Below, in pieces: positions 3,059 to 32,377 of a DNA stretch of 64,000 nucleotides. The position numbers and the translations under genes are program-made. The notes beneath the pieces are model-generated. The model did no database searches and was not told the DNA's origin. It saw only the letters and a list, made by a program, of their open reading frames with translations. The stretch lies in NCBI RefSeq assembly GCF_004010195.1, contig NC_057721.1:55421091-55485090 (forward strand), read 5' to 3'. How positions within the stretch are numbered: the first letter of the stretch is position 1; each line of letters opens with the position of its first letter. The stretch is from Chiloscyllium plagiosum (Eukaryota).

Positions 3059-3497
3059 AAGCCGGAAGGTGGGTAGGCTGTCCTGACCGCTGTCACCCTG
3101 GGCAGGCTGTCCTAGAGGTGGTTGAGAAGGTGTGTCAGGGCAGACCGAGAACTGGAAGGGGCATGGGGTGGACAGAGAACCGGAAGGTGGGTAGGGGCGG
3201 GCTGTCTTAGAGTGGTCGGAAGGTGGGAGGCATGGGCGCTTGCTGGGTCTGTATTGTCTGCACTTTTGTATGTAACAGTACTGTCTAATGTACAACTGTC
3301 ATTGCTGTTGTCTCTTTATATCTTTGTGAAACTGGGATTTGAGGTTTGTCCTCATGTCCCTGTAAACTGTTTGAATGGTAGGGTTTGGGGCCTGGCTTTG
3401 CTGCTCCTCTCCCTTGTAAAATTGCTGTCTCTTGTATGCAGCTGTAAATGTAACTGTTTGTTGTAAACTGTTTTTGTAATTTAATAAAAAAATATAT
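3059..3497 (+). mobile_element. L1/Tx1-like 3' UTR fragment with AATAAA and A-rich tail, nested in the PLE
   Basis: GT-rich 3' UTR, AATAAAAAAA at ~3483, flanked by imperfect repeats atataaggtgttcct (3044-3058) / atataagttgtttct (3498-3512). Confidence 0.5.
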
Positions 3498-6317: not shown

Positions 6318-6935
6318 TTCGTAAATATCTTGTTCAATGTGGAGTGAAGAAACACTTTCTCTTTGCCATATCTGATAGGGGTAGCAATCGCTTAAAATTA
6401 GGCTATATTCAGCAGTTTTTTTCAATTGAAAATGACTGCTTCAAATCTTTCCTATTTAGTTGTTAGCTACTCCACAATCCATAATTCTGCTGAAGCTTAT
6501 ATTTTACCTTTTAGCTGTTAAATCATATCTTAAGCTGTCACTATTTCTGCAGTATTTAATGTCTGCCTCACTACCACCTTTTGATTCTCGTCTCAAATAA
6601 AACTTCTTTTTTCTCCAATCCCAGTTAACCTCATGTCTCCATTGCTTTATTTGCCAGTTACCTTAAATGTGTACCCCACCTTTCTCAATCTTTACAATAG
6701 TGGAAACTGTCCAGAATTACTGCTTCAGAAGTTTCCCCACTACCAAAGTTAAACTTACTGACATGCAGTTGCTAGATTTATTTCTACACCTGTTTTTAAA
6801 CTAGTGTATAGCATTTGCAATTCTGAAGTCATCTGGCACTGCCTCCACCCTGGCATCTGAAGAGGACTAAAAAAATGTTAGTGCCTCTGATTTCCAGTCT
6901 ACCTTGCTTCTGTATTTGGGTTATTCTAGTGACTT

Positions 6936-7195
6936 GGAGAACTGCAGTGAGGACTGCAGATGCTGGAGATCAGAGTTGAAGAGTGTAGTGCTGGAAAAGC
7001 ACAGCCGGTCAGGTAGCATCAGAGAAGCAGGAGAGTCTACGTTTTGAGCAAAAGCTCTTCATGTGGAATGAAGACCCCTATTCTCAATGAAGAGCTTATG
7101 CTCAAAATGTCAGCTCCCATTCCTGATGAGCTTATGCTCTAAACGTCAATTCTCCTGCTCCTCGGATGCTTCCTGACCAGCTATGTCTTCGACTC
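6936..7195. mobile_element. Fold-back PLE-derived mini-element with 15-bp TSD
   Basis: Inverted pLTR arms; flanks ttattctagtgactt (6921-6935) and ttattctagtgcctt (7196-7210). Confidence 0.75.
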
Positions 7196-23937: not shown

Positions 23938-24163
23938 TGTAGTGATTGTAACCGTGATCCACGTGAACCTAACAGAATGAGTTCCCTACTTGGGGCTGTT
24001 AGCCTGGTCCAATCAGGGAGCCCTGGCTGACAGATCTAAACAGGAGTGAGGTTCTGCTCACTGAGAGCTTACTCTGGGCAAGCCAGACCAGTTTCAGATG
24101 CTATGCGCATGTAAATTCAGGGTGACTTGGAGATGTGATACCAGCCTCCATGAAGTTATTTCA
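23938..24163 (+). repeat. Gypsy 5' LTR
   Basis: TG...CA ends (TGTAGTGATTGTAAC...TTATTTCA); shares ccaatcagggagccctggctgacaga and aagccagaccagt with the 3' LTR. Confidence 0.8.
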
Positions 24164-27100
24164 GTGGTGATGAGGGGAAAAGAAAATGCTCTTGAAGAAA
24201 TTTGCTAATCACAGTCATCTTAGGGTAAGTATTTCTGGCAGTATGGCATTATTTGGTAAGCTTGTCTTGTTCGATCCTGCTTTCAAAGTTTGGGCCCAAT
24301 ATATGGAAAGAAATGTTAGGACATTGGGGCAGATGAGAAGCAATGAGCAATTCGCTTGACAGCTTGTGCATGTGCAACTTTTCAGTTATTAGGAGTCAAA
24401 CATTTCCTGAAGAAACCAGAAAATAAAGCCCTTCCAGAGTTAACTGATTTAGTTAAGGAATATTATGACCACAAGCCTTCTCTAATTCTGAGATGCTATC
24501 GGTTTTATTTGGCAGTTTGAGAAGCAGGGGAATGTGTTGGAATTTTTGACGAGGTTAAGACGACTGGCAGAGGCATGTGACTTTGGTTTAACTTTTCATG
24601 AGATGTTGAGAGACCATTTGGTAAGTGAAATTAATGATGTAACCCTGCAAAAGTGTCTACTAACTGAAGCCCAACTGGACTTCAAACAGGCACTACAACT
24701 AGCCTTATCATTGATAACGCAACAAGTGGAGGATATGACTTGCAGGGTATTCCCAAGCTTGGGGGAGCACCACTTGAGTACAGCCTCACTCAGGATATAC
24801 CCTAAACAAAGGGACATGAGGTCAGCCCACAGCAAAACCCCAAATAAAAGCTAAGCCTCAACCATCCGGTTAAAATTTTCTTTAGGATCCAGGCTGGCAA
24901 GCCATTGTAGTTGCTGCTGATATGCGGGCTCACGGCAGCAGAAGAGTTCCACTAGGCCTGAATTGAGTAAGAGGACTCACAGTTTGGTATCCAGGAGAGT
25001 GCATATCCTGGAAAGCCCACCTACGTCTGGCTTGGAACAATTAAACTGCTTAGCAACATAAAAATTATAACCAATCAGTTTAAAAGTCTAGTTAAATGGT
25101 CATCCGGTTCTCATGGCGGTCAGTACAAGTGCGGCTGTATTAGCAATTGCAGAATCAGTCTTAAACAAAATGTGCTCTGGACTGCAACCCTTGCATAAAT
25201 CAGCTAGACTGAGAATCCGTAGCATGGAACCTTTTACACATTAAGGGTGCAACTTTTGCTCCACTCTGGTTCGAGAAGCAGCTGGTTCAGTTACCACTGA
25301 TTGTAATAAAAAGGCTCTGGCTCAAGCCTGTTCGTGTGAAATTGATTGGAAAAGATTGACCTTGATTGTCTCAACATTTTTTGGCTAGAAAAAGGCTGTC
25401 TGAGTGAAATTCTAACTAATTACCTGGAAGTCTTTCAGGAAGTTCTAGGGACTATTAAAGGGGCCAAGGCGATCTTGCGCCTTGACCAGGAAGCAATCCC
25501 ATGATTCTGCAAGGCCCGCCCAGTGCCATTTGCCTTGTGTGCAAAAGTAGAGGCAGAAATTAGGGTGAAAAACGAAGGAATCAGCAAACCAGTCCAGTTT
25601 GGGAAATGGCCAGCACCGTTCATAACAACTGTGAAGCCTGATGGGTAGGTTCGCCTTTGTGTGGATTTTAAATAAGCAGTAAACTGCTTTTCGCAGCTGG
25701 ACAAATACCCAGTTCTTCACATAAAGGACTTATATGCACAGTTGACGGGAGTATTGTCCTTCAGGAAGCTGGATATGAGCCATGTGTACCTACAATTGTG
25801 GTTAGATGAGGATTCCCAGAAGTATGCTACAGTTAATACCCATAAGGGTTCTTACCCTAAATGGCAGTATATTAAAAATTGGTATCAGCCTGTGCCATTT
25901 TTCAGCAGACATTGCCAAACATTTTACAAGGTCTACCCCAGTCACCACTTAATTGGATGACATGCTAATAACAGGGACAACCAATAAAGAGGACTTGGAG
26001 AACTTGGACATAGATGTTTCTCCAAGGTGGGCATTATGCCTTGGAAGGGGAAAATGTGTGTTCCAGGCACCCTAAGTGTCCTACTTGGGCTACAGTCGAC
26101 AAGACCTGGATAGATGCTTTGGAAGATAAATTGAGGGCGATCAGAGGTGCCCTGGCTCCCACATATGTACTGGAGCTTAGGTCTTTTGGATTGGTGAATT
26201 ATTATGGAAAGCTCATATGCAACCTGGCCTCCATCCTGACACCCTTGCATCCCCTATTGGAAAAGGGACTGCCTTGGAAATGATCTCGTCGCCAAGATGT
26301 AGCTTTTAGGGAAGTGAAGAAACAGCTATCATCTACCAAGGTTTTGGTACACTGATCACAATTGAGATCAAGTGCTGACGTGTGTTGCCTTCCCGCACTG
26401 TATTGGGGTAGTGTTTGCTCATAGATGGCTCAGTGGAGAGCAGCACCCAATGGCATAAGATTCCGGAGCAGTGTGCAAGTATGCCTAGATAGAGAAAGAA
26501 GGTTTGGCTGTCATCTTTGCTGTGTGAAAGTTCCACCAATACCCTTTTTCTGACTTAGATTTGTAATTGTAATATACTATAAACCCCTGCTACGGCCACT
26601 CTGAGGACAAGCCCATGCCGTCCATAGCTTCAAGTCAAATTCAACGTTTGGCTCTCATTCTAAGTGCATACAATTTCAAGTTGGAGCATTGGCTGGGAGG
26701 CCAAGTAGCAAATGCAGGTGCCTTAAGCAGCCTCCTGTTGGCAGATATGCCACTAGTGGTGCCACTATTGGAAGAGTCTGTCTGGTTTTAAACTTTCTGG
26801 ACACCCTTCTGGTCACCACTGACAATATCCGACTGTGGATATAAAAAGATCTGGCCTGACAAAACTAAAGCAACTGGTAGTGGTTAGGGAAACAAAAGGG
26901 CCAGTCAACAGCCAGAATTGAAACATTTCTGGATCTGGCGAGACCAGATCACCATAGAGCAAGATATCTTATTTGGATGTGTGATTGTCCTGAGTAAAGG
27001 TTGCCAGACCCTGAACTCCACCAGGCTCATCTGAGGTGTCTAAAATGAAGATGTTGGCAAGAAGTTATGTCTGGTGGCCAGGATGGATTCAGATATAGCT

Positions 27101-28283
27101 GTGTTAGTGGGGCAGTGCTCAGAATGCTAATAAGGTCACAAATTAACACCAGCAGCTCCTTCATGCGTGGGAATGGCAGGGTAAACCCTGGACTCGGTTA
27201 CAAGTTGACTATGCCAGCCCTTTTTCATGGGTTCAATGTTGTTAGTCATTGTGGGCACTCAGTGTTTGGACTTACGTAGGGTTCGTGAATCAAACATGTA
27301 TGATTGATAGAAAAGCTGCGAGCATCTTTTGCAATGCATGGATTCCTCCCAGAAGTGTTGGTCCCAAACAATGGGCCATCATTTACCAGCAGGGGATTTG
27401 AGTATTTCCTAAAGTCAAATTGCATTTGACATAAAAGGACAGCTCCATATGATCCATCATCCAATGGTCTGACAGAAAGAAGTCTAAACTTTGAAGGCAG
27501 GCTTAATCAAACAGGAAATGGGACAGTTTGTTATCTAGTAAAGGCTGTTTCTTTATCAGGCAACTTGAGGGATGGATCCAGCAGTATTGTGAATGGGAAG
27601 AAGATTCCACAGCAGTTTAAATCTGATCTCTGCAAGGTCTGGGCAGTAGGGTGTGAAACAACAGCATCCAGAATGCTAATGCCAGACATAAGATCCTCGA
27701 AGCGAGAGAGAGAGTTTACTTCAGGGGATGAAGTTGAAGTTTGGTGCCAAAATTACACGAATGGCTCTGCATGGGTAAGAGGCATGGCCGATGTGAGGTC
27801 AGGTCTCATGGTATACAAAGTTCTGAACCCAGACCACATGAAAGCTGCAAACGTGCATATGGGATAGAAGCAAAAGATTTCTGGCCCCTCAGAACAGCCA
27901 GAAAGGCTGTCCGAGCTCATGTGTTCTCCCCCTCTGTCTAGTATCTGAGAAATATCTGAGTTTGAGATGGACTGCAGATATTGCAGCCTTGGTGCCATTA
28001 ACACCGGAAGAAGAGGATTAATTTCTTAAATGTTCAAGCTGCAAAAGGCGAGCTATGGTCTGGTAGAGCCTACCCATATCCCAGGTGGAATCAGAGGAAC
28101 TGGACCTGGTGCAAAAATGCCTCAGAAACGCTACAAGAAAAAGAACAGGCCAATGTTCTGGACTTGGAGGGGAAGGAATGTATTGATTGTAACAAGGTCA
28201 GCCAAGTGGATTTCAGAATATGACTTCCCTGATTGGGGCTGCCAATCAGGGAGCCCTGGCTGACAGAGATAAACAGGAGTGTC

Positions 28284-29390
28284 TGGGGAAAAAATAAGCA
28301 CTACCGCACTTAGGTGGTAGTGTGGGGGTTAAAAATAAATAAATAAATAAACAGGGGATTCTTCCTGGTGGTGGAATAAAAAGAAAAAAAAAAGAAAAGC
28401 AGGTGTGCTTGCACTTTGATGTGAAGGGCAGTGTTTGTCACTAAAAAAAAATAAATAAACAGGAGTGGCACTGCCCTTTGATGTGAAGGGCAGTGCTTGT
28501 CACTGGCCACCTGGGTGTTTTCCTGTCTTCCTGGTGGTGGAAATTGAATAAAGATTCGTGCACTTTGTAAAATAAAAGAGAAAAAAAAAGCAGAAGTGTC
28601 TGGGGAAAAAATAAGCACTACCGCACTTAGGTGGTAGTGTGGGGGTTAAATTTTAAAAAAAAAAAGGGAATTGTGGGGGTTTAAAAAAAGAGAGAAAGAA
28701 AAAACAAATAAACAGGAGTGTCACAGACTCCCAGCCCAACTGCTTGTTCTGTGGCGCTGTGGAGTCCATGGACCATGTATATATTGGGTGTGGGCGTTTG
28801 CACTCCCTTTTTGATTTTCTTAAAAACCTTCTCCTCTGTTTTTGGCTGCACTTCAGTCCCACGCTCCTGATCTTTGGGCACCCGGTATGGAGGAGGGAGG
28901 GCGGATCTGAAGACCTTCTCGTGGGTCTGCTCCTGGGCCTGGCCAAACTGCCCATCAACAGATCGAGGCAGCGGGCCATGGAGGGGGTCGTTAGGGCCGA
29001 CTGCCTGCCCCTCTTTCGCGGTTAAGTTAGGGCCCGGGTGTCCTTGGAGAAGGAGCACGCGGTGTCCACCAACACCCTGGAGTTGTTCAGGGAGAGGTGG
29101 GTGCCGCAGGGAATGGAGTGCATTATTTCTCCCTCCAACTCTATTTTGATTTAATCCCTACCCTCCCCTTCACTGTTTTGATCACGCAGCACTGCCCTTT
29201 GATGTGAAGGGCAGTGTTTGTCACTGACCACCCGGGTGTTTTCCTATCTTCCTGCTGGTGGAAATTGAATAAAGATTCGTGCACTTTGTGTCTTTCACTG
29301 TGTCTCACACGTATTCACATGCCATGGCTGCTGGGGAACAATAAGCACTACTGCACTTAGGTGGTAGTGTGGGGGTTAAATTAAAAAAAT
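28284..29390 (+). mobile_element. Tandem array of ~7 5'-truncated Tx1/L1-clade insertions separated by copies of one target sequence
   Basis: Each unit is a piece of the 29155-29390 3' UTR plus an A-rich tail, bounded by ATAAACAGGAGTGTC or variants. Confidence 0.8.
28723..29154 (+). pseudogene. Tx1-like ORF2 C-terminus (CCHC zinc knuckle), one internal stop
   Basis: CLFCGAVESMDHVYIGC...LLLGLAKLPINRSR...FRG*VRARVSLEKEH...FRERW...ILI*. Confidence 0.8.
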
Positions 29391-29459
29391 ATAAACAGGA
29401 GTGTCAGAGCTCTACTCATTCTGAGAGCCTGCTCTGAGGAAGCCAGACCAGTGTTAAGT

Positions 29460-30355
29460 GGTGACCAACGTTCAGGGATCTATATACATGGTTGCTGAGA
29501 TCTCTCTGTTTATCCACACTACAAAGAATCTTACCATTAGCCTAGTACTCTTTTTATTCCTTTGTTGCTCCTTCCAAAATGAATCACCTCACACTTTTCT
29601 GCATTAAACTCCATTTGCTAACTCTCAGCCCAGCTCTGCTGCAGCTTTCAGCACAATCCACAATTCCACTGACCTTGGTGTCATCTGCAAATTTACTAAC
29701 CCATCCTTCTATGCTCTCATAAAGGTCATTTATAAAAATGGCAGCAGTGGCCTCAAAACAGATCCTTGCGGTACACCACAAGTAACTGAAATCCAGGAGG
29801 AACCACCACCCTCTGTCTTCTTTCAGCGAGCCAATTTCTGATCCAAAGTGCTAAATCACCTTCAATCCCATACCTCGGTATTTTATGCACTAGCCTACAC
29901 TGGGAACTGTATCAAACACATTGCTGAAATCCATATGCACCACATCAACCGCTATTTGGTCACCTTCTCTAAGAACTCAATAAGGTTTGTGAGGTACGCC
30001 CTACTCTTCATGAAACCGTGTTGACTACCCCAATCAACTTATTCATCTCTAGATGATTGTAAATCCTATCTCTTATAACCTTTTCCACCACTTTACCCGC
30101 AATCAAAGTAAGGCTCACTGGTCTATAGTTGCCTCTATTCCCCTTCTTGAACAAAGGGACAGCATTTGCTATCCTCTAGACTTCTGGCACTATTCCTGTA
30201 GACAATGGCGACATAAATATCAAAGCCAAAGGCTCTGCAATCTCTTCCCTGACTTCTCAGCAAATCCAAGGATAAATCCCATCTGGCCTAGGGACTTAAT
30301 TATTTTCACATTTTCCAGAATTGCTAACACTTCCTCCTTGTGAACCTCGATCCTG
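29460..30355 (-). mobile_element. CR1 LINE fragment
   Basis: IFINDLYESIEGWVSKFADDTKVSGIVD on minus strand. Confidence 0.85.
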
Positions 30356-32377
30356 TTTAGTCTATTTGTGTAGGTTGTTTTATTTTCAGGTTAGTTTACT
30401 GAAATATCTCAACAACAACTCATCTTTATAGAGCATGTTGAGCATGGACAATTTTCCCAAGGTGGTTTTGAAGATGAGACACAAGAATGGATATTGACCC
30501 AAAGAAAGTCATGCTCAGGCTAACGTTTAATTAAATGGGTAGTTTTTAAGGAATATCTAAAAGAAGTTTTATTTCTCAAAAAAAAACCCATCCTGTTTCC
30601 TTCTGAAAATGTCAATTGTCTTTGCTCCCAGTACTCTCACATGCAGTAAGTTTCAAGTAAGAAATGCATTTTCCTGAATTCCCTTTCAGTTGGAAAGTAA
30701 TGCATTGTGATCCCAGTCAGAAAAGATCTTATTAGATTCTGACTAGTTTTTAATTAAGACTTTTTAATAAAAGTTTATAAATTTTGTGCTGTTTGCATAG
30801 ATTTCTTGGGAAGGGGTAATGGAAAAGGTATCTAATATGGCCTTGAATACTTTGTATAGAAAAACAAATATTTTTCTCACCAAAGTATTGCCATTTGTGA
30901 GAACTCTCTCTGCAACCCATTCAGTTGTTCCATGGGGATTCTTGAGTGCCCATGACATGGTATCAAATACTAACTAACTTCTGGGAATTATGTATTATTC
31001 AGTAATGTTCAGGATGAATAACATATCACCTAGGAGAATTTCATTAAGAGAAAAGTAAGAACAATTATCCTCAAGACCTAGGGGATTTGTTTACCCACAA
31101 TTGACATCAGGTGAAAACTTCACATATTCAGCTAGTAACAGCTCATGAAATATTGAGTTAATGACTTAAGCATGTTTGTGACATTGCTACTTCTATAATT
31201 GTTCTTCATGCACAGATTTATGTGGTAATTTTTATTCAATAGCTCCTTGATACATTGCAGGAAATAAATCCAAATGCTGTCTTGTTTACAGTTTGATAGT
31301 TGAAGCATTGGTTCATTAATGAATTGTTTTATTTTGTTGACTGTGTATTGCTTTTGGATTTCTCTCTGTTACTATCACATAATTGACTATTACATCAAGC
31401 GTAAAGGGTGTTGCAAGTTTCACTTTGAGTGTATCTTCGCTACTTCCTATCCAATTGCTATTGAATCATTTTCTATCTGTCAGGTAATCCTGTGCCACCT
31501 CCCACAGTCTATTTAATCAGACACATTAAATCTAATGTGCCATTATGTAATAAGACTAGAGTCATAGGATCTTGTGCAGTGGTAGTGTCCCTACCCCGGA
31601 ACCAGGAGGCCCAAGTCTCACCTGTTCCAGAGTTGTGTAATAATATCCCTGAACAGGTTAATTTAAAAAAAAGTCTCACAAAGCTAGAATCATAGAATGG
31701 TTACAACAGAAGGAAGGCCATTCAGCCTTTCGTATCACAAAAAGAGCTACTCAACTGGTCACACTCCCTTAGCTTTTCCTTGTAACCCTGCATACATTTT
31801 CTCTTCAGATAATTATCCGATTTCCTTTGAATTGAATCTGTTTCTGTGAAGCTGTATGCTGCATTGTATTGCATGTTGTGATTCTCTTTTCCTATATGCT
31901 TAGTAATTTTTAAAAATGAATTCAAGCCGATTTAATTCATGATTGTCTTATTATTTACAAACATTGAGGTACGTATCACATTCTCATTTTCTGTTTAAAA
32001 CCTTCAATTATGTTTTTGTCAATATTGACCTCTTGGCTGGCTAACGTACTCTCTCTTCAGATATTTAATGTATGTTAAACTTTGTGAAGTACCTTCTGGA
32101 AAAATCACTTATTACCTCTATTCAATAATATATTTAGGCAGATTATTTATTGAACACATTCTTTGTGTTAAATAATGCTTTATTTATCCATAGGTTAATT
32201 TCATATTGCACGTTCTTTTGAGACATTTTAAGGCTTTCACTGTAACAAAATAACAGGCCATTTATATTTTCTGTGATATTTTAGTTTACAAATACTGACA
32301 AAAATGCTTGTAATCTTTGACATTCAAACACTTGTGTAAATTGTATTCTTGTACATAGTGATCCTACTGCTGCCCAA

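Follow-up and report, generated by a model that had tools for sequence, protein, structure and literature searches.

A Tx1-clade LINE repeatedly inserted at one site of a Gypsy-type LTR in the genome of Chiloscyllium plagiosum

Target preference and tandem insertion have both been described for Tx1 elements and their passengers. The accessible text of Kojima 2015 (PMC4494074) calls a Tx1 element target-specific if one kind of sequence is found in more than 20% of its flanks. It names two crocodilian Tx1 elements, Tx1-8_Crp and Tx1-4_AMi, which insert preferentially into LTR retrotransposons, and it reports that tandem SINEU-3 insertions sandwich a target-site duplication (TSD). The 5' end of one SINEU-2 subfamily is extended by sequence of the Mariner element that it targets, and this subfamily was proposed to be transcribed from its flank. 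The transcription of target-specific LINEs and of snRNA- or target-headed retroposons was left open in that text. Keno and tandem insertions of Utopia are treated in the accessible part of PMC4640811.

The LINE analysed here resembles Tx1-8_Crp and Tx1-4_AMi in its LTR preference; their position within the LTR element is not given in the accessible text of PMC4494074. Compared by description only, the head of Tx1-4_AMi is U1-derived, whereas that of the present LINE comes from the target LTR. Tx1L of Xenopus laevis (ORF2 is YTX2_XENLA, P0018), which lies in the DNA transposon Tx1D, also targets another transposon. Tx1L is stringent according to the accessible part of PMC1950540, whereas the present LINE is off-site in about half of its insertions, has an LTR as target and has a shorter endonuclease hairpin loop. 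In Tx1-Mar with SINEU, as far as the text of PMC4494074 could be consulted, an autonomous Tx1 and a non-coding passenger have a common target preference and their tandem insertions share a TSD. The same is found here, with the differences that the target is a putative LTR core promoter and that the heads of the LINE and of its 1.7-kb passenger are apparently target-derived, not U1- or U2-snRNA-derived. Two further systems are analogies only and belong to other clades with other targets (telomeres; Pol III genes). In the telomeric head-to-tail arrays of HeT-A/TART the upstream 3' UTR serves the downstream element (PMC5537684), and the non-LTR element TRE5-A, whose ORF1 protein interacts with TBP, is positioned by the promoter complex (PMC5911963), both as stated in the accessible parts of these papers.

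A sequence-only reading of this locus had proposed the LTR as a new target for Tx1 elements. This proposal is anticipated by the crocodilian elements and by the TSD shared between tandem SINEU-3 copies. The targeting is of a known kind, and the LTR-derived heads of the LINE and its passenger appear to set the system apart. Neither a Tx1 element sited at the TATA box of an LTR nor one whose head is LTR-derived turned up in the literature searched; such an element may be recorded in Repbase or Dfam, in subscription papers or in the PMC4494074 supplements.

The window is the whole 64,000-nucleotide stretch that was analysed (G000:C12:55421091-55485090, within a 3.56-Gb assembly). It contains a decayed Gypsy-type element whose 3' LTR is split by an array of seven Tx1-clade LINE pieces lying between copies of a 15-bp site. 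The features are listed below in window positions.

3060-3490, plus strand: passenger (family 2), 5'-truncated copy, not at an LTR site
23938-24163, plus strand: 5' LTR of the decayed Gypsy-type element, TG...TTCA ends read from the sequence, site empty (about 24036-24050)
24164-28178, plus strand: Gypsy internal region, broken by many stops and frameshifts; it opens with a PBS-like stretch, then gag-, protease-, RT-, RNase H- and integrase-like remains in order (by eye)
28166-28178, plus strand: purine tract of the Gypsy element
28179-28268, plus strand: 3' LTR upstream of the site, U3-like, CCAAT at 28242-28246
28269-28283, plus strand: target copy 1, exact, overlapping the TATA-like box
28284-28346, plus strand: piece 1, last 50 nt of the LINE (7021-7071, 3' hairpin) and A tail, from mapping and identity to piece 5
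28347-28394, plus strand: target variant 2, piece 2 (LINE 6935-6952, 3' side cut short) and A tail
28395-28454, plus strand: weak target variant 3, piece 3 (LINE 6881-6913, 3' side cut short) and A tail
28455-28585, plus strand: target variant 4 (one mismatch), piece 4 (from LINE 6877, 3' side cut short) and A tail
28586-28707, plus strand: target variant 5, piece 5 (LINE 7021-7071), weak variant 6, very short piece 6, A tails
28708-28722, plus strand: target copy 7, exact
28723-29390, plus strand: piece 7, LINE 6417-7071, with ORF2 C-terminus including CCHC, 3' UTR, hairpin and short A tail
29391-29405, plus strand: target copy 8, exact
29406-29460, plus strand: 3' LTR downstream of the site, R-like

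The LTR pair and the layout of the Gypsy element were seen, and the domain order of its remains was judged by eye; the protease (E=0.029) and RVT_1 (E=0.0028) matches were both under the Pfam cut-off. The U5 end of the 3' LTR was not found. In the stretch 29456-30420 this LTR breaks off about 55 nt into its downstream part and gives way to an unrelated minus-strand repeat. In most LTR copies the site starts with TATAAA and has CCAAT about 27 nt upstream; TCACTCT lies about 29 nt downstream of the site, and AATAAA further on. By the promoter consensus, these motifs are putative TATA-like, CCAAT and initiator elements. In the window 3' LTR the first T of TATAAA is replaced by G. The LINE target site would on this labelling be the TATA-like box of the LTR, a point absent from the earlier account.

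The 15-mer target was found exactly at 28269, 28708 and 29391. Variants were located at 28347 (three mismatches), 28455 (one) and 28586 (three), and weak gapped ones near 28395 and 28663. With up to three mismatches allowed, the window holds nine matches (2.45 expected; none of 100 shuffles reached nine), and six of the nine fall inside the 1.1-kb array. The exact copies and intervening variants described before are confirmed by this search. So is the common orientation of the pieces, which all map in sense on a natural full-length LINE copy of 7071 positions, piece 6 being too short for mapping. In pieces 2-4 the A tail begins before the true LINE 3' end is reached. The longest piece (piece 7) does encode an ORF2 C-terminus with a C-x2-C-x7-H-x4-C motif, with one in-frame stop. 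A 3' hairpin is predicted in piece 1 (z=-4.4) and in piece 7 (z=-2.1). Pieces 1 and 5, described as near-identical, have no difference across 47 nt, and the starts of pieces 3 and 4 differ by 4 nt. The claim that each piece has its own 5' truncation fails for these two pairs.

Misassembly, which had been named as a way to refute the array, is unlikely, because contigs of separate read runs match array stretches and junctions. Contigs of run X5 at single-copy depth (7-11) showed 0 differences over 28185-28270, 28422-28494, 28544-28629 and 28659-28723, and the right junction (29365-29541) was covered by contigs of runs X2 and X6. These contigs are among the 24 listed of about 35,000 records; they skip 28326-28404, none spans the whole array, and one of the sequenced samples could be the assembly's own source.

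Natural copies of the LINE are about 7.0-7.5 kb long and consist of a 5' UTR that contains a TG run and GC-rich repeats, followed by an ORF1 region, ORF2, the 3' hairpin and an A tail. ORF2 matches APE (E=1e-6) and RT (E=1e-32) and has a C-terminal CCHC motif. Its identity to Xenopus Tx1 ORF2 is 61% over 97% of 501 aa in the RT region, and 53% over 753 aa. In an RT tree of 23 rows (midpoint root, composed without identified L1, Keno or crocodilian rows), the LINE pairs with a stingray protein and is grouped with sturgeon, Xenopus Tx1 and turtle (support 100/99). These comparisons support membership of the Tx1 clade, in agreement with the sequence-only reading. A zinc-knuckle motif (C-x2-C-x4-H-x4-C) was seen in the putative ORF1 region of 7 of 11 copies, and Pfam zf-CCHC matched under the cut-off in one of four pieces; every copy examined is broken. 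No intact copy was present among the loci fetched. Two copies seemed to have open frames of 2042 and 2083 aa, and these frames were rejected as products of assembly gaps. Such gaps interrupt many long LINE copies in the window and in the fetched loci, so that the full-length and array counts are lower bounds. The insertions carry the marks of target-primed reverse transcription (TPRT), namely an A-rich tail, 5' truncation and a short TSD (10-18 bp). In a single-cell RNA run, 461 reads were found, mostly in one orientation, in which the LINE 3' end is followed by long stretches of A. Their alleles are those of the family, so they derive from other copies than those of the window, and priming on genomic A tails may be their source. 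This run was compared with the window stretch, which has no full-length head, and therefore says nothing on start sites.

To measure the target preference, 102 loci were picked by LINE-internal similarity (28 via the 3' UTR, 39 via the ORF2 C-terminus and 35 via RT), leaving out the window self-hits, L025 (duplicate of L006) and L112 (wrong side fetched). First-look candidates numbered 2553 for the LINE 3' end and 2460 for the LTR, and the best 40-150 were scored per search. The 5' side of a copy or array is the fair test, since read-through can carry downstream LTR sequence along. The 5' flank was LTR U3 plus site in 37 loci, other sequence in 43 and unresolved in 22. The LTR site makes up 46% of the 80 resolved 5' flanks (CI 35-58%), so the expectation that most flanks would be this LTR was not borne out. 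An automated flank walker undercounts LTR sites; judged by eye, L103, L067 and L230 seem to be missed LTRs. The LINE starts 10-17 nt past the U3 anchor in 28 of the 37 LTR-site loci, and its orientation was sense in 50 of 50 junction records (some loci counted twice). As background, four non-adjacent U3 matches occurred in 213 kb of flank. The share of 37/80 exceeds the 20% by which Kojima 2015 defines a target-specific Tx1; the stringent type, in which nearly all insertions are on target (Tx1L, R1Bm), differs from this LINE with 43 of 80 elsewhere. The LINE has a strong preference for the LTR site, not a strict specificity.

We also looked from the side of the target. Among 29 LTRs picked on U3 alone, two had this LINE at the site, one an older relative, one the passenger and one an A tail only, and 24 had no LINE match. 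Divergence from the column majority was 3.3% for the LINE (56 copies) and 13% for the occupied LTRs (27 LTRs), which indicates that the LINE colonised old LTRs. The locus L170 (G000:C22:12692085-12695178) holds a more diverged LINE relative at the same LTR site, which suggests that the site preference predates the young LINE family. In L171 and in L203:300-740 (oriented), a different SINE-like repeat lies just upstream of the site, at the preceding AGAT.

These data bear on the idea that the pattern came from local slippage or misassembly, or from a single LINE-LTR association that the LTR element or transduction then propagated. In its favour, transduction of downstream LTR sequence does occur, some arrays contain plain local tandem repeats (L053, L211 and a U3 repeat in L024), and L006 and L025 are near-identical duplicates. 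However, independent runs contain the array junctions, and the divergence of the LINE is a quarter of that of the occupied LTRs. The points of 5' truncation also vary immediately behind U3, a pattern that 3' transduction cannot produce. Of the 29 U3-picked LTRs, 2 carry this LINE at the site and 24 show no LINE match. This explanation is largely refuted and we regard it as very improbable.

The sequence-only reading had assumed that the endonuclease reads the 15-mer strictly and that the seven pieces are seven independent insertions. The fixed position and orientation at the LTR agree with this, and the endonuclease of Tx1L, the closest named relative, nicks almost only its own target in vitro (accessible part of PMC1950540). 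In contrast, more than half of the resolved 5' flanks are other places that do not resemble the site, occupied sites in many cases deviate from the window 15-mer at several positions, and the target-reading hairpin loop is three residues shorter than that of Tx1L. The off-site insertions had their own 10-18 bp duplications in 18 of 43 cases, mostly opening with TA(A/G)A-like words. Beyond these first bases they matched the site at 4.67 of 10 positions, versus a background of 4.37 ± 1.0, and most traced off-site insertions were at ordinary A-rich sites. Occupied LTR sites did not appear better conserved than empty ones in a per-column test, in which the empty set is biased to similar copies; accordingly no recognition code was found with it.

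The 15-mer itself is genuinely duplicated target sequence. Where a locus has its own variant of the site, that variant is found on both sides of single insertions, and together with the separate duplications of off-site insertions this excludes that the 15-mer is part of the LINE's own end. Such variants also recur before pieces with differing 5' ends in L009, L018, L024, L128 and L129, which demonstrates serial re-insertion; the view that the site is regenerated as a TSD and then reused is thereby upheld. Multi-piece arrays were found at 32 of 48 LTR loci and at 8 of 32 others (p=0.0005). In the arrays L021, L022 and L011 the repeated site is unlike the LTR 15-mer; the flanks of L011 and L022 are non-LTR, and L021 has no readable flank. 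A first insertion can perhaps make any site reusable, as in these three, possibly via its A tail.

Serial insertion does not account for all units. A 5' start shared with the neighbour was found in 58 of 202 array units, versus a mean of 7 and a maximum of 20 after shuffling, and 5 of 17 off-site insertions contain a target-like word. Both counts speak against seven separate insertions in the window. The model that joins strict reading of the 15-mer with seven independent insertions is quite unlikely. In L127, L130, L132 and L199 the donor site and R-U5 were apparently 3'-transduced. Arrays would then also grow by pairing of cDNA with a resident piece, by 3' transduction from donor arrays and by local duplication. 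A duplication of about 150 bp at L121 was considered as homology-assisted joining; the same block stands behind A tails at L289 and L290, so that it may be transduced and was not counted. The candidates left are L103 (about 35 bp) and the same-start units. Because read-through and re-duplication add units too, the seven pieces of the window are probably fewer than seven insertions; a plausible minimum is three events (one for piece 7, one for pieces 5 and 6, one for pieces 1-4), with seven as the maximum.

A second A-tailed family of about 1.7 kb is non-coding and has a 3' end unrelated to that of the LINE (for example L249:518-2185; 2048 first-look candidates). U3 plus site was found at 8 of 24 resolved 5' flanks in the 29 loci examined. 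This passenger shares arrays with the LINE, and its head-to-tail arrays are frequent. Its head contains no tRNA and gave no Rfam match at the gathering level, and thus lacks the hallmarks of a classical SINE. When four passenger heads were aligned, anchored, with the LTR downstream of the site, they beat shuffles in seven of eight tests at ≤4/2000; an unanchored local alignment was not significant. A 322-codon minus-strand open frame was rejected, as it is not kept in three other copies. The passenger is likely moved by this Tx1 LINE.

Among 33 segments between two target-like words, two were clearly foreign. A 3' UTR copy of a single-copy host gene, 267 nt long, is flanked by two target copies at L131:9079-9345 and adjoins an existing A tail; it is a single traced case. 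Its source (G000:C25:31494250-31494515) is a gene with a YccV-like domain, presumably FBXO21-like, and has no LINE, LTR or A tail. The second foreign insert, L033:2313 (45 nt), is a candidate for the same pattern.

These inserts help to weigh a model in which the nick is unspecific and a read-through RNA, carrying the donor target behind its A tail, pairs with the nicked strand and primes better at the LTR. The two-class site pattern and the mismatch tolerance fit such pairing, as do the target-like words in off-site insertions and the four apparent transductions. According to the accessible part of PMC7265360, accurate priming by R1Bm depends on downstream target sequence, and SART1Bm performs better in its presence. 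However, the host mRNA copy in L131 sits exactly at the site although its source has no target words, and L033:2313 fits the same pattern. The L131 case, being one case, favours a protein-borne choice over RNA-target pairing, and we consider the pairing model unlikely. The preference of the passenger for the LTR site, despite its unrelated 3' end, likewise speaks for a choice made by proteins.

The probable explanation, in our judgement, is that a Tx1-type LINE inserted repeatedly and in one direction at a 15-base site of an older Gypsy LTR, copying the site each time, with the choice likely made by LINE proteins and the seven pieces likely reflecting fewer than seven insertions. In this mechanism the endonuclease would nick TA(A/G)A-like words loosely, and a protein would draw the RNP to the LTR site, either through a context wider than the 15-mer or through a factor bound at the TATA box. 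Read-through RNA carrying the donor's site and the next piece would extend arrays. A new cDNA end may pair with the resident copy, so that the 5' part of the resident is re-duplicated, and local tandem duplication may add further units.

The 5' end of the LINE bears on its transcription. In 16 of the 17 copies that were picked via RT and extend to the 5' end, a head was seen by eye that corresponds to the LTR immediately downstream of the site, apart from an inserted TG run; part of the LTR-like head is lost in L110. The head is also present in copies at non-LTR sites and therefore belongs to the LINE itself. By sequence comparison, the LINE 5' end derives from the target LTR, which the sequence-only reading did not mention. 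A further 68 heads were found via an LTR-like anchor, which gives no frequency estimate, and four labels were set by eye. Of these, the LTR runs on from the site in 24, a LINE 3'-end piece precedes a shortened head in 42, and two are deleted forms. In L205:893-1004, L216:881-1004, L204:889-1004 (oriented) and about 40 others, the junction between the LINE's own 3'-end piece and the LTR-derived head lies at a fixed point. The resulting non-terminal repeat of this subfamily is reminiscent of TART. The 3'-end pieces start within positions 6864-6870 in 6 of 21 heads.

Such heads would place a full-length copy, once inserted at the site, under the CCAAT/TATA promoter of the LTR. The start of L271 lies almost exactly at the predicted start. 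Three apparently off-site copies are preceded by 230-460 nt of 3' sequence, which would follow if the donor RNAs had started further upstream. Several observations speak against transcription from the LTR promoter. In L211 the head starts some 7 nt further upstream than predicted, the heads of L127 and L132 differ in the spacer from their own downstream LTR, and the L249 passenger brings its own last letters of the site; all four carry sequence upstream of the predicted start. The GC-rich 5' UTR repeats, several hundred bases long, could be an internal promoter. From these sequence features, transcription of full-length copies from the LTR promoter appears about evenly balanced between yes and no. 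A broader reading is that the LINE is a promoter parasite, whose proteins home to the TATA box of dead Gypsy LTRs, whose RNA starts with the transcribed sequence of the LTR, and in which pairing of head and target rebuilds the LTR promoter before each full-length copy. We hold this reading tentatively, as a possibility somewhat short of even. If it is true, the LINE and its 1.7-kb passenger would need no promoter of their own and would live on thousands of relic LTRs.

In conclusion, LTR-preferring Tx1 LINEs are known already, and in its core this finding adds a clean new example to them. What makes it valuable is that the site is known to the base and comes with thousands of candidate copies, with insertions both on and off the site, with serial arrays, with a passenger RNA and, at the same spot, with a host retrocopy. 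How an APE-type LINE picks a site unlike its off-site insertions is testable here, and so is the transcription of target-specific LINEs and of snRNA- or target-headed retroposons. If promoter capture is true, the relics of one transposon class would supply another class with promoters, and the system would be a natural model for site-directed RNA insertion in vertebrates.
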